From assembly GCF_051903065.1 (NCBI RefSeq), contig NZ_CP178438.1: a stretch of DNA of 64,000 nt. One strand, written 5' to 3'. Of the stretch, positions 1,448 to 61,901 are shown piece by piece. How positions within the stretch are numbered: position 1 is the first letter of the stretch; the number at the start of each line of letters is the position of its first letter. Both the position numbers and the translations under genes were made by a program. Below the pieces are notes generated by a model that was given only the letters and a program-made list of their open reading frames with translations, ran no database searches and had not been told where the DNA came from. Origin of the DNA: Escherichia coli (GTDB lineage Bacteria > Pseudomonadota > Gammaproteobacteria > Enterobacterales > Enterobacteriaceae).

Positions 1448-2794
1448 TTATCCCCTTATCGCCCAGAGCTGAAGGTTCAGATCGGGGAAGGTGCCGGAGA
1501 TATGCAGCGCCAGCGCGCCCGCTTTTATCACGTCCTGCCAGGCTGGGGTGCCTTTTTCCAGTTCGAAGTAAACATAACCTTCATGCCAGGGCAACTGACG
1601 CGGCGCAGCGGTAAGCGTGTGCAGCGGAATACCCGGCACCTGCACGCTGACCACGCTGCGGATTTTGTCGGTAGCGGCCACTTTCGACTGCTGGATGAAC
1701 TGGCGTTGTACCTGGTCGTAGGGCATCCTGGCGCGCACTGCCAGTACCAGCTTGCAGGACTGCAACAGTGTGGGATCGTTGATGGTGGCGATCCAGGTCC
1801 CCTCTGAAAAGAACAGCGGCAGATTCTGCGCACGCGGCACCAGTACGGTATTGAGCGCGCGCCGCAGTTCCGGGATCACGGTTCTGGTGAAGGTCGCGGT
1901 AAGATCCCTGTGATTATATGGCTCCACGGTGCAGGGCAGGCGATTACCTTCGGTAAAGGTCATCAGTTCTCCCAGCAGCCCCACCAGATCCCGGTAGAAG
2001 GCTTCCGGATGCAGCGTGTGCAGTTGGGAACGATGCGTGAACTGCATTTGATGGCGGTTAAGCATCTGCAACATCATAAATTCGGCTACATCGGCGATCC
2101 CGCTCTGTTCAGGCGAACCAATGCGCCCGGCCAGGTCAGCGGCGCGGGTGGCAAGCAGTCCCTGCACCTCGCCGGAGAATGCCCCGAGCAACCCGCTGAC
2201 ACGGACGGCCTGAATGGTGGGAATAAAGGTGTTGTCCAGCACCAGCGCGCCGGTGGCATTTTTATTGAGGATAAGGCACAGGGGGAGAGTCACCATCGCG
2301 CTGAGATCATCTGCGCCGCTGACTATCCTGGGGATCAACTGTCCCAGACCGACTGGCTGTTCGTCGCCTTCGTCAGTGTGAAAATCACGGACGCGGGTAT
2401 GGGTGAGGCGGTAACGCTCCGTACCCTGACCGGCGCTGTGCAACCCCTGGATTTCATTGATCACGTCGCTTATCACCGGCAGCGCCAGATAAATACTGTG
2501 GCTCTCTTTCGATGAAAGGGTTCCCGGCTGGAAAGGTTCCGGCAGCAGATCTTGGTCGGGAATACTGAATACGGTGCCGTCAGGCATGCAGCCCGCCGCA
2601 CGGTCAATCATAATTTTGCCCTGAGCAAGCAGTTCGGTATTGATGGAGAGTTCCGTAAAGCCCCAGAAAAAATCACCCAGTGCATCCAGACGACGGGTCA
2701 GCAGGTACTCGCAGTGACGCTGCTGTTGCTGAAAATGCTGCGGCAGGGCAAACAGCCCTTCCTGCCAGATCACCTTGTTTTTCATTGTTGCCAT
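1448..2794 (-). CDS. tssK: T6SS baseplate protein TssK
   Basis: 448 aa; N-terminus MATMKNKVIWQEGLFALPQHFQQQ is the typical TssK start; synteny. Confidence 0.9.
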   Translation of the reverse strand: MATMKNKVIWQEGLFALPQHFQQQQRHCEYLLTRRLDALGDFFWGFTELSINTELLAQGKIMIDRAAGCMPDGTVFSIPDQDLLPEPFQPGTLSSKESHSIYLALPVISDVINEIQGLHSAGQGTERYRLTHTRVRDFHTDEGDEQPVGLGQLIPRIVSGADDLSAMVTLPLCLILNKNATGALVLDNTFIPTIQAVRVSGLLGAFSGEVQGLLATRAADLAGRIGSPEQSGIADVAEFMMLQMLNRHQMQFTHRSQLHTLHPEAFYRDLVGLLGELMTFTEGNRLPCTVEPYNHRDLTATFTRTVIPELRRALNTVLVPRAQNLPLFFSEGTWIATINDPTLLQSCKLVLAVRARMPYDQVQRQFIQQSKVAATDKIRSVVSVQVPGIPLHTLTAAPRQLPWHEGYVYFELEKGTPAWQDVIKAGALALHISGTFPDLNLQLWAIRG

Positions 2795-2796
2795 CG

Positions 2797-3321
2797 TCAG
2801 TTTTCCTCTTTTTTCATCTCAATCGCACTGGCGCGGATGTGCACCAGCAGGCGATAGTGGTGGCCGATACTTTCTACCGGCTCAATTTGTTTCCATTCTG
2901 TGGACTGGTCGTCTGAAAAATAGGCAATGACGCCGATATAACCGGTTTTCTCATCCAGCTTGATCGGCGGCAGTGTTTTTACGGTATCCGGCAACAGGTT
3001 GAAGTCCTGGTGATCGATATAGTTTTTCCCTAGCACGTCGGGCAGCGCGGTGGTGGCAACCTGGTCGTAGTCGGCGGCCTGGAATTTGGAGTCGTCGCTC
3101 AGATAAATCAGCTGGACATCCACCGGCGCGGCTTCGCCGTCCGCCGTCAGGTTGCTGTCCGGCTCGGTCAGCAGCGTGACGGTTAGCTCGGTTGACTGAT
3201 CCATCAGCTTTCCGACCTGAATATCCGGATTGCGGATCACCTGGCTGATTTTTTTCGCTGTTTCACAGCCAGTTAATACGACGCTCATCAGAACGCAGGC
3301 CAGAAACGCTTTGCCGTTCAT
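2797..3321 (-). CDS. tssJ: T6SS outer-membrane lipoprotein TssJ
   Basis: 174 aa; signal peptide with lipobox LTGC; 1-bp spacing to tssK. Confidence 0.85.
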   Translation of the reverse strand: MNGKAFLACVLMSVVLTGCETAKKISQVIRNPDIQVGKLMDQSTELTVTLLTEPDSNLTADGEAAPVDVQLIYLSDDSKFQAADYDQVATTALPDVLGKNYIDHQDFNLLPDTVKTLPPIKLDEKTGYIGVIAYFSDDQSTEWKQIEPVESIGHHYRLLVHIRASAIEMKKEEN

Positions 3322-4610
3322 GCTTCCGGCTCCCGCTGTTTTTCTCGCAGCACCCGGTCATAGACCTGGGCATAAACTTCATTGAACAGCATTTCAAATC
3401 CTTGCTGTCGGCTGGAGGCCAGCTCATCGTAATAGTTGCTGTACATCTGCCATGCCCAGGCGTCGTCCATTTTCTGGCGCAGTTCATGGCTGCGGCGGTA
3501 TTGCGCAAAGCGGCGCATCAGGTTGCCCGGCGAGAAGGCCTCCAGCATGACACGCAACGCTTCCACAATCGCCGCCCGGTTAGCCTCTTCATGATGCCGG
3601 ATGTTGCGCAGGCTTTCGCCGATGGCCGCGGGTGCTGCGAGATGTACCGGACTTTTACCCTCAGCGAACATGACGTTCAGCGCAGTGGCGTAGTCCATAT
3701 CAAGGCGAAGCGGGTTGTCTTCCAGTGGACGCAGGTGTTTATCCGACAGGCTGTTCTGTTGTTGTTGCAGGCTCAGCAATCCCTTAATGGCAGCCTGCAA
3801 CGCCCGTCCGGCCTCTTCGAGAAACTCATCCGCATCCTGAGAATCGTGCAGCGTCAGCGGGCACTCCATACCGCGCAGCAGCGGGGTCACGGCCAGGTGG
3901 TACTGCGCCATGGCAGAAAATTCATCGTCGTCCTCATAACGGGCATTGCCGGGCGGCAGATCCATAAACGGCGTATTGATCCCGTTTGCACCTGTCAGTT
4001 CGGAGGCGAGGGCGACGGGCCGGGAAACGCGTGGTGCGATCGGATCATCTGCCACCATCAGGCTTTCCGTCTGGAGTGCCTGGAGCGGATCGCTGGAAAA
4101 ACCGTGCGCCACCGTGGGGGCAAGCTGATGCTGGAACGGCATTCCCGGATAGGACGGTTGTCCCTCGGTGGTCAGCAGGGTGTCCGCCAGACTGTCGCGG
4201 TTCATCACAATCGTTTCCGGGGTTGCCATCCGCTCGTCGTAGGTGACAGCCGCGCCGTCATGCAGAAACGCTTTCAACGCCAGTGCACCGAGCTGGATCT
4301 CATCCCCTTGGCGCAGGCGGATGAGCGCACCGGAAGAAACCGGGGCCAGATTAATCATCAGTCCCGGCGTCAGGCACCGCAGGCAATAGGCTCCGTCGTG
4401 CCGGATAACGGTACAGGCACGCGCAGCAATGCTTCCCGCCCGATCCTGTACCTGCCAGTGACATTCCGGCGTATGACCAATATCACCGCCGTTTTCGCTG
4501 AACAGGCATTTTGCGGCGCGTCCGCTTTCCAGTTCGTTGCCATTCATCACCTGTAAAGTCAGTGAGGCCTGGCGGGATTGCTGTTTTTCCTCAGCCATAA
4601 GTGGTTCCAT
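3318..4610 (-). CDS. tagH: T6SS-associated FHA-domain protein (TagH-like)
   Basis: Start moved to the internal ATG at 4610 (MEPLMAEEKQQ...), which follows the tssG stop; FHA-like N-domain (GHTPECHW...IRHDGAYCLRCLTPGLMINL). Confidence 0.75.
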   Translation of the reverse strand: MEPLMAEEKQQSRQASLTLQVMNGNELESGRAAKCLFSENGGDIGHTPECHWQVQDRAGSIAARACTVIRHDGAYCLRCLTPGLMINLAPVSSGALIRLRQGDEIQLGALALKAFLHDGAAVTYDERMATPETIVMNRDSLADTLLTTEGQPSYPGMPFQHQLAPTVAHGFSSDPLQALQTESLMVADDPIAPRVSRPVALASELTGANGINTPFMDLPPGNARYEDDDEFSAMAQYHLAVTPLLRGMECPLTLHDSQDADEFLEEAGRALQAAIKGLLSLQQQQNSLSDKHLRPLEDNPLRLDMDYATALNVMFAEGKSPVHLAAPAAIGESLRNIRHHEEANRAAIVEALRVMLEAFSPGNLMRRFAQYRRSHELRQKMDDAWAWQMYSNYYDELASSRQQGFEMLFNEVYAQVYDRVLREKQREPEA

Positions 4611-56526: not shown

Positions 56527-57714
56527 TCAGCTAAATAAATATGTAATAGCATAAGGCGTAAGTAAAAAGTAGAACCTAAATGTAAGATATAAGCCACATA
56601 AAACTATAATTCCTAATGAGGCAAAAACAACTTTCTGAACAAGCAATCTTGTGGTTAAACTATCAAATGTATCCTTTATATCTTCGTAAATAGCCTTGAA
56701 GTTATATTCTGCTTGTTGTTTTTTATGATTTAACTCATCATTTATTGCTGTTAAAGTTTGCCATTGATTAAATAGAACAAATAGAATCATAATAGTGAAG
56801 AACAATGCACCCAACACTACAGCTGTATTTATTAATGCTTGACTATCCCAACCATTAGCCTGCTTCATTTGAGTCGCAACGATAATTGTTGCGACGGGGA
56901 TACCTAATATCTGATTTTGTATGTCACTGAATACTTTATGTATTTTTCCCATCTCTTCTATTTTGGCTACTCGTAACTGATCCAGTATTTTCTCGTAAGA
57001 AAAACCAGAAACGAATACTTTGTATCCTTTTTGATAACTTTCATAAAGTTGTCCTAAATCCCTTAACATGAAGGAAAAAGAGGTTTCTTTAGTTTTAGAT
57101 TCACATGATGATTTTATGCTACTTGCTAAAATAGTAAGTTTTTGATCTTTATGCGTATCTTCTGCAAAGTTTGCGATCAAATTATGAATCAGATCTCCAT
57201 TAACATTCATAAGATCATCGCTAGAATAATTTACTGGAATTTTTAGTACGTTGGATTCGACGAATACCAATTCAAAATTTGTTTCATCTAAATAAGCAGA
57301 ACAATCTTTGAATAAAGTAATTAAGCTCAAAACATCTCTGTACTTGGATATAATAGCAGGCGACTTTTTATCCCTGTTGTGATAATTAAGTTCGATTATA
57401 AAGAAGTTACTGGCTTCCTTTATCCTATTTTTAGGATTTTTTAAATACTCATTAAAAGAGAAATGTAGCTGCCCCAATCGTAATTTGGGGGGGGTTATAT
57501 GTAAGGTTATAGTTTGGCCTAACTCAATGTTGCCAGATTCAAGGGTGATGCCAAAATCATGGGGATTCTCTGTGATATCGTTGATGATGTCACAGAGCTC
57601 CTCGTTTGAAAGAATGAGTGATGCTTCAGATAGGGTACCTGCAAATGTAGCGGCCTTGTAAATAGTCACTAAGTCTTTGAAGGTTCTCTGATTGTTACTG
57701 CTCATCCTCTTCAC
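56527..57714 (-). CDS. Hypothetical protein with two C-terminal transmembrane helices (cassette gene 2)
   Basis: 395 aa; hydrophobic segments ALINTAVVLGALFFTIMILFVLF and VVFASLGIIVLCGLYLTFRFYFLL; 20-bp overlap with the upstream gene; AT-rich. Confidence 0.6.
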   Translation of the reverse strand: MKRMSSNNQRTFKDLVTIYKAATFAGTLSEASLILSNEELCDIINDITENPHDFGITLESGNIELGQTITLHITPPKLRLGQLHFSFNEYLKNPKNRIKEASNFFIIELNYHNRDKKSPAIISKYRDVLSLITLFKDCSAYLDETNFELVFVESNVLKIPVNYSSDDLMNVNGDLIHNLIANFAEDTHKDQKLTILASSIKSSCESKTKETSFSFMLRDLGQLYESYQKGYKVFVSGFSYEKILDQLRVAKIEEMGKIHKVFSDIQNQILGIPVATIIVATQMKQANGWDSQALINTAVVLGALFFTIMILFVLFNQWQTLTAINDELNHKKQQAEYNFKAIYEDIKDTFDSLTTRLLVQKVVFASLGIIVLCGLYLTFRFYFLLTPYAITYLFS

Positions 57715-58729
57715 CTAATTCTGATAAAATCTCTGATCTTAGCGTATCCGGAATCTCGGTAAGTATCAATTTATCGTTTTCTGAATCATAAAGAACGCTG
57801 CCATCATGCAAGGCCGCACGCTCGAATTTCAGAGACCAATGTTTGGACTTTCCTTTGAAACTAACAAGCCCACGTATAACGTTGCCATCAGGCACGAACC
57901 CATCAGAGAACTCCAGATCGTCATTGGTTAACTTTTCAACTAACAACTCAGGAGCAGTTGGCCATATCTCGTTTGCAAAAACTTGAGTGTCGAAAGCTTC
58001 ACCAGAACGATTTAAATTTTTTAATTTTTCATGAGCCTTATTTAGGAACTCTTCACGTGCCTCTGGTTCAAAACCTCTTTCAGTAGCAAATTCTAAAAGT
58101 GCATTCCGTAATTTTGTTGTTTCTTGTTTGGCAATTAGAATATCGTTACAACCTAAAAACTTTTTGAAATAACCTGCTACTGAATTTTGCCCCTTTAGAA
58201 AGCTAATATATCTCTCTTTGCCATTCTGGCGCCCAGTTAAGTCAATTCGTCCCGCTACTCGAAGTTTAGCAATGTCTAGATATTCACTTTCTTGAATTTC
58301 AAAATCGTGGACTGAAGAGCCAACTGCTGATGTTAGGATTGCAACCATCAAATAATGATTTCCATTTACCTCATTATGGGCAATTATTACATAACCACCA
58401 GTAGACATTGATTCATCATCGGCTCTGGCTTTTAAATGATTGATCATTCGGATACTAGTATCATAAAAACTATGTGTTTTATTTACGAAATAATCATCAA
58501 CGATATTACCCATAGGGTAACTATCGCGGTCATCTTCAAATTTACCATATCCTTTACCTGCTCTCCCAGAGTACCTTTCAGTAAGTGCGTTAGAGAGGTC
58601 TTTTGATGCTTGCTGAACAGGTTTTTCTGAAGGACAAGGAATAATGGTGGCTAACCCCTGTTGTTCCTTGTTCATAATGTGAACAATAAACTTATGAGTG
58701 ATATTAGTGGGGGTCGCTGATGCAGTCAT
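57695..58729 (-). CDS. NdpA/YejK-like nucleoid-associated protein homologue (cassette gene 1)
   Basis: 344 aa; blocks GGYVIIAH...YLMVAILTS, LDIAKLRVAGRIDLTGRQNGKERYISFLKGQN...FKKFLG and a C-terminal LILTEIPDTLRSEI mirror YejK (GGFVLFCH, LDLDKMQLASRIDLTAWQTNSDRYLSFLKGKNG...FLHFLG, LTIKGTPPNLRDQL). Confidence 0.7.
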   Translation of the reverse strand: MTASATPTNITHKFIVHIMNKEQQGLATIIPCPSEKPVQQASKDLSNALTERYSGRAGKGYGKFEDDRDSYPMGNIVDDYFVNKTHSFYDTSIRMINHLKARADDESMSTGGYVIIAHNEVNGNHYLMVAILTSAVGSSVHDFEIQESEYLDIAKLRVAGRIDLTGRQNGKERYISFLKGQNSVAGYFKKFLGCNDILIAKQETTKLRNALLEFATERGFEPEAREEFLNKAHEKLKNLNRSGEAFDTQVFANEIWPTAPELLVEKLTNDDLEFSDGFVPDGNVIRGLVSFKGKSKHWSLKFERAALHDGSVLYDSENDKLILTEIPDTLRSEILSELGEEDEQ

Positions 58730-59349: not shown

Positions 59350-59826
59350 ATGCAGGTACTAAATTCCCAGCGTAAAGCTTTCCTCGATATGGTGGCATGG
59401 TCAGAAGGAACGGATAACGGGCGACAACCGACACGTAACCACGGTTATGATATTATTGTTGGTGGTGAACTATTCACTGATTACTCCGATCACCCTCGCA
59501 AACTTGTCACGCTAAACCCCAAACTCAAATCAACAGCTGCAGGCCGTTATCAACTTCTTTCACGCTGGTGGGATGCTTACCGCAAGCAGCTTGGGCTGAA
59601 AGACTTCTCTCCAAAAAGCCAGGATGCTGTGGCATTGCAGCAGATTAAAGAGCGTGGCGCTTTACCGATGATTGATCGCGGCGATATTCGTCAGGCTATC
59701 GATCGTTGCAGCAATATCTGGGCTTCACTGCCGGGCGCTGGTTACGGTCAATATGAACATAAAATAGGTGACCTGATTGCCCGATTCAAAGAGGCTGGCG
59801 GGGTGGTAAATGAAGTTGAGCTATAA
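59350..59826 (+). CDS. Endolysin, lambda R-type lytic transglycosylase
   Basis: 158 aa; NQRKAFLDMVAWSEGTDNGRQ...DRCSNIWASLPGAGYGQ matches lambda R. Confidence 0.93.
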   Translation: MQVLNSQRKAFLDMVAWSEGTDNGRQPTRNHGYDIIVGGELFTDYSDHPRKLVTLNPKLKSTAAGRYQLLSRWWDAYRKQLGLKDFSPKSQDAVALQQIKERGALPMIDRGDIRQAIDRCSNIWASLPGAGYGQYEHKIGDLIARFKEAGGVVNEVEL

Positions 59827-60202
59827 GCTGGTTATCGCAGCATTCTTCTCTACTGTCATCGGTTCTTTCATCTGGTCTGCTAACCACTACTACAGCAAAT
59901 ATCAGCACGAAAAGAAACGTGCTGATGAGGCTGTACAAAATGCTGAATCCGCAACCGCTATTACCAATAATGTCCTGCAATCACTGCAAATCGTCAATAC
60001 AGTTCTGGAGGCTAACCAGCATGCAAAACAGCAGATCGCACTGGAGTCACAGAGAACCCAGGAAGATATCAAAGTGGCTGTTGAGAATGATGATTGCGCT
60101 TCCCGTCTTGTTCCTGCTCGTGCAACTGAGCGGCTGCGCCGGTACGCGGACAATTTACGTACCAGTTCCGGCGGTACCACTACCGGCGAACCTGACCGCT
60201 GA
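59810..60202 (+). CDS. Spanin inner-membrane subunit (Rz-like)
   Basis: 130 aa, N-terminal TM helix then coiled-coil; overlaps the R 3' end. Confidence 0.75.
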   Translation: MKLSYKLVIAAFFSTVIGSFIWSANHYYSKYQHEKKRADEAVQNAESATAITNNVLQSLQIVNTVLEANQHAKQQIALESQRTQEDIKVAVENDDCASRLVPARATERLRRYADNLRTSSGGTTTGEPDR

Positions 60203-60344
60203 AACCCCACAGCCAGCTATTCCTGATCCGCTGACTTACAGAGATAGTCTGGATTTAAACGTGAGCCTGCTGTCAGTGCTGGCTGCCTGTAATAGGGATA
60301 AGGCTGATATTCGTAAAATTGAAGCAGAGAAGAGTGAGCCATGA
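60087..60344 (+). CDS. Spanin outer-membrane lipoprotein (Rz1-like), overlapping Rz in another frame
   Basis: Internal start MMIALPVLFLLVQLSGC (lipobox), Pro-rich mature part; extends past the Rz stop. Confidence 0.65.
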   Translation: MMIALPVLFLLVQLSGCAGTRTIYVPVPAVPLPANLTAETPQPAIPDPLTYRDSLDLNVSLLSVLAACNRDKADIRKIEAEKSEP

Positions 60345-60538
60345 AGCAGTAAAGTGGAAAGATCGCAGCAAGAAGTGCCTGTTCAGAATTAATGAAGATG
60401 CCTCAAATACCTAAAATAGCGAGTAGCCAGATGCACGTCAACTACGAGTGTGTGGCCAGCATAACGTTGTATAAACTAAGTGATAGCAGAGTTCAATATA
60501 CGTATACTGAGAGAACTATTTCTATTTGAGAACTGAAA

Positions 60539-61132
60539 ATGACGGACTATACTTTTTTTTACTGGATAGAGATGCTTCTTAAAGAAGGCAATGTTTTATT
60601 TATTGTTCTTGCTTGTTTGATTGTCTTTTTTACTTTAAAAAAAGAAATAATAATGGTTTTAGGTCGTCTTAATACAGTTAAGCTAGGTGACTATGAGATT
60701 AAATTTAAAAAAGAAATGTTTGAAATAGAATCTAAAAGTATAGAGGTTATTAAAAATTTACCTGGAACAAATCCTGTCCTGCCGACACAACTCATTGAGA
60801 ATTTCAATATTTTTGAGAGTCTTGCTAGTACTCAGCCTAATGTTGCTGTACTTTCAGCTTGGCGCGAATTGGAGTTAACCGCTATAACGCTTGCATCTAA
60901 AAAGGGGGTTGAGATCAACGGGACATCTTTAGGGCGGGCTTCAGGTATCGCTGCCTTGAAAAATGTCCAATCTGCAAACAAAATTTCTAGTGACATTGTT
61001 AAGCTTTATGAAAAAACAGGAGAGTCTATTAAGCCTATATCCCAAGGAAAGCTCTTATGTACTCAGGAAGATGCTTTGGCATTCTGTAAGAATGCAAAAA
61101 GACTTAGCAATTATTTAACATCCATATTTTAG
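60539..61132 (+). CDS. Hypothetical protein with N-terminal TM helix (AT-rich moron after the lysis cassette)
   Basis: 197-aa ORF, about 30% GC against a ~50% GC phage background. Confidence 0.5.
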   Translation: MTDYTFFYWIEMLLKEGNVLFIVLACLIVFFTLKKEIIMVLGRLNTVKLGDYEIKFKKEMFEIESKSIEVIKNLPGTNPVLPTQLIENFNIFESLASTQPNVAVLSAWRELELTAITLASKKGVEINGTSLGRASGIAALKNVQSANKISSDIVKLYEKTGESIKPISQGKLLCTQEDALAFCKNAKRLSNYLTSIF

Positions 61133-61208
61133 TATGTATCCATAGAGCATCCATTATTATTGGAGTAGTCGTTACAGCAGGCATTCACTGAGTGCCTGCT
61201 GCTGAACT

Positions 61209-61421
61209 CTAATAGCAAGATGGAGAATCTGCATTAAATTTTTGAGAGAGATTACTTATTTCATTCACTCCCTTATGATTAAGTAATAGCCTAATATTTT
61301 CTGGAGCCTTGAATATAAATGGGCCTTTTAGATCCTCGATGATTCCTCCTGCGACGCAGATCAAATGCTTGAAATCAACATCTTCAATTGTGGGCTTGGA
61401 GTCCAGATTATCGCTTGTCAT
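61209..61421 (-). CDS. Hypothetical small protein
   Basis: 70-aa ORF, AT-rich, convergent with the 60539 gene. Confidence 0.3.
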   Translation of the reverse strand: MTSDNLDSKPTIEDVDFKHLICVAGGIIEDLKGPFIFKAPENIRLLLNHKGVNEISNLSQKFNADSPSCY

Positions 61422-61550
61422 TTAAAAACATCCTTTCTTGCCATTAGCAGCATTGAGCATGTTATGGAATCTGTAATTTAGGATGCTGGTACTACCAGTA
61501 CTTTTTTTGTTTCATTTTGTGAATCACCTCATTTACGAGGGGAGCCTATC

Positions 61551-61901
61551 ATGCCACCACGAACACCAAAAGCCTGCCGTGTTCGCGGCTGCCGCTCTAC
61601 AACCACAGACCCTTCAGGCTACTGCGAAAGCCACAAAAGCGAAGGCTGGAAGCAATACAAAACTGGACAATCCCGTCATCAGCGCGGCTACGGTTCGAAG
61701 TGGGACAGTATCCGCGCGCGTGTCCTGAAGCGTGACAAAGGCCTGTGTCAGTTATGTCTGCGTGCTGGTGTGGTGCGTGAGGCGAAGACCGTTGACCACA
61801 TCATCCCTAAATCGCATGGCGGCACTGATGTCGACAGTAATCTGCAGAGTTTGTGCTGGCCGTGTCATAAGGCGAAGACGGCCCGTGAACGGCTGAAGTA
61901 A
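61551..61901 (+). CDS. Phage HNH endonuclease (terminase-associated)
   Basis: 116 aa; Cys-rich HNH motif (CQLC...VDHIIPKSHGGTDVDSNLQSLCWPCH). Confidence 0.85.
   Translation: MPPRTPKACRVRGCRSTTTDPSGYCESHKSEGWKQYKTGQSRHQRGYGSKWDSIRARVLKRDKGLCQLCLRAGVVREAKTVDHIIPKSHGGTDVDSNLQSLCWPCHKAKTARERLK

Follow-up and report, generated by a model that had tools for sequence, protein, structure and literature searches.

The 64,000-nucleotide stretch of Escherichia coli DNA analysed here (contig NZ_CP178438.1 of assembly GCF_051903065.1; called the window below) carries an SfV/e14-like E. coli prophage. The region under study matches a prophage in the chromosome of E. coli 23CRST027 at 100%. The gene order runs from the Q antiterminator through an AT-rich two-gene insert on the minus strand, a lambda-family holin, a GH24 endolysin and the spanins Rz (DUF2570) and Rz1 (LysC) to a stretch of cargo. 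This is followed by an HNH endonuclease, the P27-family small terminase (terS), and then the large terminase, the portal, an HK97-type protease and capsid, and a sheathed tail. The Rz1/LysC gene stops at 60344 and the HNH gene starts at 61551. Two convergent open reading frames (ORFs), which we call ORF197 and ORF70, lie inside this gap, between Rz1 and the HNH and terminase genes, where a preliminary description of the same DNA had placed them. Our results show that the gap is an accessory cassette. The explanation we prefer for the whole, to which we give a probability of about 55%, is that ORF197 is a membrane-anchored protein of the HEPN superfamily that no longer acts as a nuclease and serves in phage exclusion or abortive infection (Abi). 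The following features are the subject of the analysis.

60303 to 61550, no strand: variable cargo segment (moron slot) from the spanin genes to the HNH gene, delimited by homology breakpoints and GC content

60539 to 61132, plus strand: ORF197, 197 amino acids from an ATG start, RefSeq WP_104773370.1 ("hypothetical protein"), phrog_30030

61209 to 61421, minus strand: ORF70, 70 amino acids from an ATG start, phrog_22590, absent from the RefSeq annotation

The interval from about 60303 to 61550 is an accessory cassette of the lysogenic-conversion type (a moron) at the bor position, and it contains two independent genes. We conclude this because the flanks are conserved, the occupancy of the slot is variable, the breakpoints are sharp and the GC content is foreign. 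An AT-rich moron behind the lysis genes is also what the preliminary description had suggested, and the variable occupancy among relatives bears it out. With a 3.2-kb query that extends from the endolysin gene to terS, 2998 of 5426 complete E. coli genomes were matched; the middle of the query was covered in only 19 of them. In comparisons with four related prophages the right homology breakpoint falls on 61551, exactly the ATG of the HNH gene, and the left breakpoints fall between 59828 and 60282, within or just after the spanin genes. In strain HeN100 the Rz/Rz1 allele is strongly diverged up to position 60302, after which the cargo is near-identical. Recombination has hence carried the cargo from one lysis-cassette allele to another.

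What occupies the slot differs from prophage to prophage. It is empty in L016, where 183 bp separate the spanin and HNH genes. It holds a DUF6236 gene in L018, a GrlR-family gene in L019, and a gene for a 113-amino-acid phrog_12178 protein in L038 (E. coli S19-651). In L017 the occupant is iss, which lies on the minus strand exactly between the spanin gene and HNH. RefSeq names its product an increased-serum-survival lipoprotein, and we take Iss to be a homologue of Bor. The slot is thus of the bor type, as had been proposed. The same proposal named lom as a second gene of this position, which does not hold: lambda lom lies in the tail region and not in the post-lysis slot.

The base composition of the cargo sets it apart from its surroundings. 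The GC content is 34.2% for ORF197, 37.1% for ORF70 and 36.4% for the whole interval from 60345 to 61550, against 49.5% in the lysis cassette and 57.1% from HNH to terS. The drop noticed earlier is therefore real (34–37% versus 50–57% in the flanks). Its size had been overstated, since "about 30%" is too low a figure for a cargo of about 35% in which only the local 200-nt minima reach 28–29%.

The cassette, ORF197 and ORF70 had no match in 50,697 phage records (megablast and tblastn), and ORF197 had none in 72,556 plasmid records (tblastn). Within these collections, the cassette thus occurs only in chromosomal prophages. A scan of IMG/VR returned only six copies, all of the E. coli allele. Scanning positions 60200 to 61650 with Rfam gave nothing above chance. 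A 45-amino-acid ORF at 60392–60529, which has no Pfam match, was treated as spurious.

ORF197 is under purifying selection and is not a chance ORF, as its full-length homologues and a low ratio of nonsynonymous to synonymous divergence (dN/dS) show. A search of 5.8 billion proteins found homologues in only seven clusters, at 47–99% identity; all are about 197 amino acids long and keep the N-terminal hydrophobic helix. A Yersinia enterocolitica clade (P0011) is 36% identical to ORF197, and from E. coli to Yersinia full-length homologues occur at 36–69% identity. The clade is confined to prophages of Enterobacterales and related metagenomic contigs. Compared with the homologue in L005, ORF197 has dN 0.22 and dS 1.46 (dN/dS about 0.15). 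Seven E. coli copies vary at ten sites, of which six fall on third codon positions, one of them being an indel in a T8 tract. The start at 60539 is supported by the conservation of residues 7–38. A later start at M39, which the PHROG profile uses, was rejected for the same reason: the residues it would remove, transmembrane helix included, are conserved in the homologues. Literature searches with RefSeq protein accessions found no paper on the protein.

One could argue that the cassette is decaying junk, the non-functional remnant of earlier cargo. It is rare, after all (19/5426 genomes), two ORF197 reading frames are broken (a T8-to-T7 frameshift at codon 5 in strain AR_0061 and a frameshift in the transmembrane region of the L008 homologue), and RefSeq does not annotate ORF70. 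However, ORFs that stay full-length from E. coli to Yersinia at 36–69% identity, with dN/dS near 0.15, are not what decay leaves behind, and neither is the excess of third-position changes among the E. coli copies or the dN/dS of about 0.16 between ORF70 alleles. These signals of selection exclude decay, and we regard it as very improbable.

The two broken frames are described here for themselves. The T8 tract at 60546–60553 forms codons 3–5 of ORF197. In AR_0061 (L022) it is reduced to T7, which shifts the frame that begins at the first start codon; RefSeq annotates a 186-amino-acid product from M12 in this strain, with the transmembrane helix still included. The tract could be prone to slippage, or T7 could simply be a mutation or a sequencing error. 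In L008, at about 1180–1260, the metagenomic homologue P0007 (172 amino acids) is preceded in another frame by the conserved N-terminus MDVIFKWVEMLLKEGNVFLIVLAC, which means that the variant is frameshifted inside the transmembrane helix. The L008 contig recurs in 16 samples.

Three features of the ORF197 protein matter for what it may do.

60587 to 60637, plus strand: predicted transmembrane helix, about residues G17–L33, N-out/C-in, from hydropathy and conservation

60785 to 61123, plus strand: HEPN-fold domain, about residues 83–195, with helices at 83–95, 100–121, 136–145, 151–168 and 176–195

61007 to 61048, plus strand: degenerate active-site stretch Y157-E-K-T-G-E-S-I-K-P-I-S-Q-G170, in place of the family motif LRxLRNxAxH (Rx4H)

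A single N-terminal transmembrane helix had been noticed from the sequence, and hydropathy, the predicted structure and conservation among homologues all agree with it. The segment has a Kyte-Doolittle value of 2.2 over 19 residues, is helical in the AlphaFold2 (AF2) model and is kept in homologues down to 36% identity. In the wider family, 136 of 148 representatives have an N-terminal hydrophobic segment. On average these 148 proteins carry 0.39 lysines and arginines in the 15 residues before the segment and 3.75 in the 15 residues after it. By the positive-inside rule, this asymmetry places the HEPN domain in the cytoplasm. Between helix and domain lies a conserved juxtamembrane segment (R43...F56).

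The earlier statement that the protein is unrecognised can be revised, because a profile search leads to the HEPN superfamily. We built a profile from the close homologues of ORF197 and searched it against 1.84 billion representative proteins (E ≤ 1e-3). This yielded 263 relatives, nearly all of 180–200 amino acids (about 190) and with the same layout. Of the aligned relatives, 45/77 match Pfam DUF4145 (best E 6.3e-08), 19 match HEPN_RiboL-PSP, 11 HEPN_Swt1 and five HepT, all of which are families of the HEPN clan (PMC3710099). As a control against a match driven by the transmembrane helix, we compared the C-terminal domains alone with hhalign: the ORF197 clade and the relatives that bear an RNxxxH motif align over 114 columns with 99.5% probability (E 5.5e-23). 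The predicted structure of ORF197 (an AF2 model built from only eight sequences, pLDDT 78.6) has the four-helix up-and-down bundle of a HEPN domain. No homology to a structural or packaging protein, which would have told against an accessory gene, was found by Pfam, PHROG or structure. Profile and model together indicate that ORF197 is a membrane-anchored protein of the HEPN superfamily, from the DUF4145-like branch and a member at the level of the fold. That it has this fold and that the cassette is a moron we consider, taken together, very likely.

ORF197 appears to descend from a family of transmembrane HEPN proteins of about 190 amino acids (DUF4145-like) that mostly keep the RNxxxH motif of HEPN RNases. 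The strict motif is present in 112 of 148 representatives of the wider family. In ORF197 and its six closest homologues neither RNxxxH nor the looser Rx4-6H occurs anywhere. According to the alignment, the catalytic arginine corresponds to I/V164, the asparagine to an invariant K165 and the histidine to the variable residue 169 (Q/K/Y/E). The consensus of the seven proteins at this site is (Y)E(K/R)xG(E/D)(S/L)(I/V)K(P/L)(I/L)(S/R), and the seven share no invariant histidine at any position. P0013 (30% identity), a closer relative of the active type, retains RNQANH. Hence, the ORF197 clade is a derived branch without the motif. Since both the arginine and the histidine are lost, we predict that its members do not cut RNA. 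HEPN domains without conserved polar residues have been predicted to act as binding modules (Anantharaman et al. 2013, PMC3710099).

It is conceivable that ORF197 is nevertheless an active toxin or RNase, a classical Abi nuclease of the HEPN type with a non-canonical active site. The fold is that of HEPN, the residues R109, E110, E112, R133, K141, K165, D178 and K187 are invariant, and some HEPN families use alternative residues (PMC3710099). However, arginine and histidine of Rx4-6H are replaced in all seven members of the clade, no histidine is invariant anywhere in the protein, and no antitoxin is encoded beside it (ORF70 is not conserved in that position). We therefore consider an active enzyme unlikely.

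What has been conserved instead is helix 1 (AVLSAWRELELTAITLA) together with the segment RASGIAALK. Both are almost invariant from E. coli to Yersinia, which argues for a conserved surface for binding or oligomerisation. This pattern would also suit an anti-defence decoy, a dead HEPN protein that poisons active HEPN RNases of the host by assembling with them or that soaks up their activating ligand. ORF197 is carried by a phage and derives from an apparently active family of identical architecture; its oligomerisation helix has stayed extremely conserved through the loss of the catalytic residues; and HEPN nucleases need dimeric composite sites (bioRxiv 10.1101/2021.11.02.466367). A decoy needs a target, however. 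The pattern AWRE[LV]EL was found at one confirmed locus, in a metagenome-assembled genome, among 100,044 species-representative genomes. Active close relatives are thus very rare in isolate genomes, and it is unlikely that E. coli or Yersinia has a target to match. Moreover, anti-defence genes are usually early, whereas ORF197 closes the late lysis region and has a promoter-like element of its own, like morons expressed in the lysogen. A decoy seems to us about as improbable as an active RNase.

The signals around ORF197 bear on when it might be expressed. All promoter and terminator calls given here are consensus matches and not evidence of transcription.

60480 to 60508, plus strand: promoter-like element GTGATA-17 nt-TATACT, ending 31 nt 5' of the ORF197 ATG; putative, from a consensus scan

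61175 to 61201, no strand: 12-bp GC-rich hairpin between the convergent genes (CAGCAGGCATTC-ACT-GAGTGCCTGCTG), with no U tract on either strand

61484 to 61510, plus strand: terminator-like hairpin and T7 run shortly before the HNH gene; putative, from a consensus scan

A pair of −35- and −10-like elements with a 17-nt spacer ends 30–33 nt before the ATG in the window and in L002, L003 and L013, and the pattern GTGA..N17..TATAnT aligns among the window, L002 and L005. In L013 and L003 canonical intrinsic terminators follow directly after the stop codon. In the window the hairpin between the two genes is not scored by the terminator scan. The sequence around it (61125–61215) folds with −30.8 kcal/mol (z = −4.6 compared with shuffled sequences), and the stem is kept in the diverged allele of L038. 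Homologues at five loci have a GC content of 33–36% inside phage modules of 45–53%. Where the gene follows spanin genes, 70–265 bp lie between. Taken together, the promoter-like pair, the spacing, the GC content and the terminators or hairpin make ORF197 look like an autonomous transcription unit, which fits a moron better than a lysis gene.

This matters because ORF197 could instead be an accessory gene of the lysis module, such as a regulator of lysis timing, a membrane-energisation factor or an antiholin-like factor, co-transcribed late with the holin, endolysin and spanin genes. Four unrelated prophage backgrounds (the window, L002, L003/L004 and the Yersinia loci L013–L015) have ORF197 or its homologue immediately behind the spanin genes and in their orientation, and these backgrounds differ in holin (lambda-type, Phage_holin_3_1 and Phage_holin_2_1), endolysin (GH24, PF00959 and GH19) and spanins. 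ORF197 is a membrane protein, and a depolarisation like that caused by Csx28 (see below) could in principle trigger holins. Yet ORF197 is dispensable for lysis, since closely related prophages that share the lysis and packaging genes either leave the slot empty or carry unrelated genes in it. The gaps of 70–265 bp with promoter-like elements are unlike the overlapping frames typical of lysis cassettes, and the GC content of the gene is foreign. On the short contigs L005 and L008 the neighbours of the homologue are phage genes of unknown function and not recognisable lysis genes, and neither Pfam nor PHROG gave a match to a holin, antiholin or spanin family. A role in lysis is therefore improbable, if a little less so than the decoy or the active RNase.

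For the function of ORF197 we tentatively favour a non-enzymatic role in membrane exclusion or Abi; considered by itself, this assignment falls somewhat short of even odds. It rests by analogy on the precedent of Csx28, on prophage-borne HEPN Abi factors of the HepS type, and on a relative found beside genes of the BREX system. The lysogen would probably transcribe ORF197 from the gene's own promoter. The protein would be an inner-membrane protein with one N-terminal transmembrane helix, the juxtamembrane segment and a four-helix HEPN domain that faces the cytoplasm. The surface formed by helix 1 and RASGIAALK would most likely serve to oligomerise or to bind RNA or a phage protein, after which the protein would probably perturb the membrane or block an incoming phage, in either case without catalysis. 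HEPN domains work as oligomers, and pore formation as in Csx28 would provide a precedent for the mechanism.

Csx28, an accessory protein of type VI-B2 CRISPR systems, has a transmembrane helix at its N-terminus, followed in the cytoplasm by a four-helix HEPN-like bundle that has a divergent HEPN motif and is inactive as a nuclease. It forms an octameric pore and depolarises the membrane during phage infection without catalysis (both bioRxiv 10.1101/2021.11.02.466367). ORF197 has the same architecture, a transmembrane helix joined to a nuclease-incompetent HEPN bundle, and the likeness is one of architecture only. The two proteins show no similarity by sequence or profile, and there is no cas13b gene or CRISPR array near ORF197, whose annotated 25-kb neighbourhood consists of prophage genes only. 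ORF197 may thus work like Csx28; it is not a member of that family.

Other known proteins resemble ORF197 in part. It shares the HEPN fold with the DUF4145 family (PF13643, clan CL0291), which its relatives match, and fusions of DUF4145 and of other HEPN families to transmembrane segments have been listed (Anantharaman et al. 2013, PMC3710099). ORF197 itself stays below every Pfam threshold and is without the Rx4-6H motif, which some 80% of DUF4145 proteins retain (PMC3710099). HepS from the Salmonella prophage Gifsy-1 is a solo HEPN Abi factor that acts as an anticodon nuclease (PMC13043305, PDB 9oik). Unlike HepS, ORF197 is predicted to be anchored in the membrane, lacks the motif and follows the lysis genes. 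Bor and Iss share the genomic slot with ORF197, and in each case a single small envelope-associated protein is encoded on an AT-rich insert. They are not homologous to ORF197, however, and are outer-membrane lipoproteins encoded on the opposite strand, whereas ORF197 would be an inner-membrane HEPN protein encoded on the late strand. The non-catalytic HEPN-fold regulators MtlR/YggD differ in being soluble transcription regulators of the mannitol operon, without a transmembrane helix and without a phage context.

Several observations weigh against the explanation we prefer. As a single sequence, ORF197 matches no Pfam, PADLOC or NCBIfam model. Foldseek found no significant match in the PDB, where the best hit was the HEPN structure 2hsb at E 0.21, nor in BFVD. 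The link to HEPN is transitive: it leads from ORF197 to the profile of its clade and from there to relatives that match Pfam, with the predicted structure as a complement. The hydrophobic core of the transmembrane helix is short (about 14–17 residues). Given the invariant charged residues that are left, the loss of arginine and histidine does not strictly exclude a non-canonical active site. By scan and by folding, the copy in the window has no canonical terminator, and a position directly after the spanins, on the same strand and in four backgrounds, would also fit a gene that is expressed late and linked to lysis. Finally, only one distant relative, P0022, has the context of a defence island; it adjoins BREX PglZ/BrxL and an AAA_15/21 gene.

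Most distant relatives are on metagenomic contigs of 1–3 kb. Among PADLOC models, the wider relatives have weak matches only (PDC-M16A at 7.9e-06, a 2TM effector at 5.7e-05, and CARF-HEPN models). ORF197 and ORF70 have no PADLOC match at E ≤ 1 and match no exclusion family of Pfam such as SieB. Membership of the HEPN superfamily plausibly fits the earlier guess that the cassette encodes defence or exclusion, and is no proof of it. The relative P0168 adjoins a gene that on visual inspection we took for a RAYT-type transposase; this context is uninformative.

A more specific possibility is that the ORF197 clade is a stand-alone, single-gene immunity factor of prophages, a pore or gate like Csx28 that does without Cas13 and is triggered directly by the RNA or a protein of an infecting phage, or else a phage-made dead-HEPN decoy that neutralises HEPN nucleases of the host. 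We think it rather unlikely that one of the two is right, though either would be of some consequence. HEPN RNases are among the commonest effectors in bacterial immunity, and nearly all characterised ones cut RNA. The only membrane-anchored, nuclease-dead HEPN protein that has been studied is Csx28, and it depends on Cas13b. If the suggestion were true, HEPN domains would have turned repeatedly from RNases to membrane effectors without enzymatic activity. Fusions of transmembrane segments and HEPN domains were catalogued in 2013 without functional study; ORF197 is a candidate for a Cas13-independent, nuclease-dead HEPN membrane effector. It would be a compact, solo and prophage-borne example that is easy to test in E. 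coli.

ORF70 had been described as a possible gene. The profile match, a Shine-Dalgarno sequence and a diverged allele with low dN/dS argue that it is a real gene and not a chance ORF. The match to phrog_22590 runs from end to end (70/70, E 9e-47). The ribosome-binding site was read from the sequence.

61431 to 61434, minus strand: Shine-Dalgarno sequence AGGA, 9 nt 5' of the ORF70 ATG

In five further E. coli genomes a DNA segment of 69% identity occupies the same slot next to HNH, and the cargo beside it there is a gene other than ORF197. The diverged allele it encodes (E. coli S19-651, L038) has 69 amino acids, is identical at 41/72 positions (57%), ends in the same ...PSCY and has AGGAG at the place of AGGA. 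For this pair of alleles the proportions of nonsynonymous and synonymous differences are pN 0.25 and pS 0.69, which after Jukes-Cantor correction correspond to a ratio of about 0.16, dS being close to saturation. The other frames are riddled with stops. The family is tiny, with five clusters, and has no Pfam, PADLOC or NCBIfam match; an AF2 prediction from the single sequence gave no confident fold (pLDDT 60.7).

We considered whether ORF70 could be the antitoxin or immunity partner of ORF197 and rejected this, because the genes are convergent, ORF70 is absent beside every non-E. coli homologue of ORF197 examined, and it occurs with other cargo in L038. For the latter two reasons the two genes appear to be independent passengers, and treating them as one unit is not justified. 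On this evidence ORF70 is an orphan gene of its own, small and linked to the end of the slot nearest HNH. Its partner in L038 (2522–2863, minus strand), the 113-amino-acid phrog_12178 protein of S19-651, is rich in cysteine and histidine.

Among E. coli prophages of a very common family, the gap between spanin and HNH genes is a well-defined hot spot for cargo, whose alternative occupants include Iss and several unknown genes. Mining it could yield further accessory genes; a conserved 70-amino-acid gene that had escaped annotation is one addition to the slot.

Some neighbouring features are worth recording. The terminator-like hairpin at 61484–61510 lies inside the cargo, 40 nt 5' of the HNH start. 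If it is a terminator, late transcription could extend into the packaging genes only through antitermination by Q. Upstream of the cargo, the gene for the Rz-like DUF2570 i-spanin at 59810–60202 is flagged by RefSeq as a pseudogene ("missing C-terminus") in 23CRST027. The window has an uninterrupted ORF of 130 amino acids here, with the Rz1/LysC frame embedded in it. Hence, the flag is probably an annotation artefact.

The insert between the Q antiterminator and the holin gene (56527–58729, minus strand) is a second AT-rich two-gene insert, with a GC content of 35.6%. It encodes a 344-amino-acid NA37/YejK-like nucleoid-associated protein (PF04245, 1.5e-68) and a 395-amino-acid membrane protein (phrog_5023). 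The pair has sub-threshold NCBIfam matches to both components of the anti-phage system DS1 (NF053868 at 2.4e-15 and NF053869 at 1.6e-19) and is probably a distant relative of it. In the Yersinia enterocolitica loci L013/L014 the slot between Q and holin (1617–4376, minus strand) contains genes for an AAA_15/AAA_21 ATPase of 537 amino acids and for a 380-amino-acid protein without a PHROG match, which looks like another two-gene moron of the defence type. The same Yersinia phage has ParB_N and Mom genes before the terminase. In L005 a 149-amino-acid protein is encoded (2680–3129) 3' of the ORF197 homologue, which is 66% identical to ORF197. It has an N-terminal transmembrane helix, a helical C-terminal part and a weak match to phrog_6169, and may be a further membrane-anchored accessory protein.

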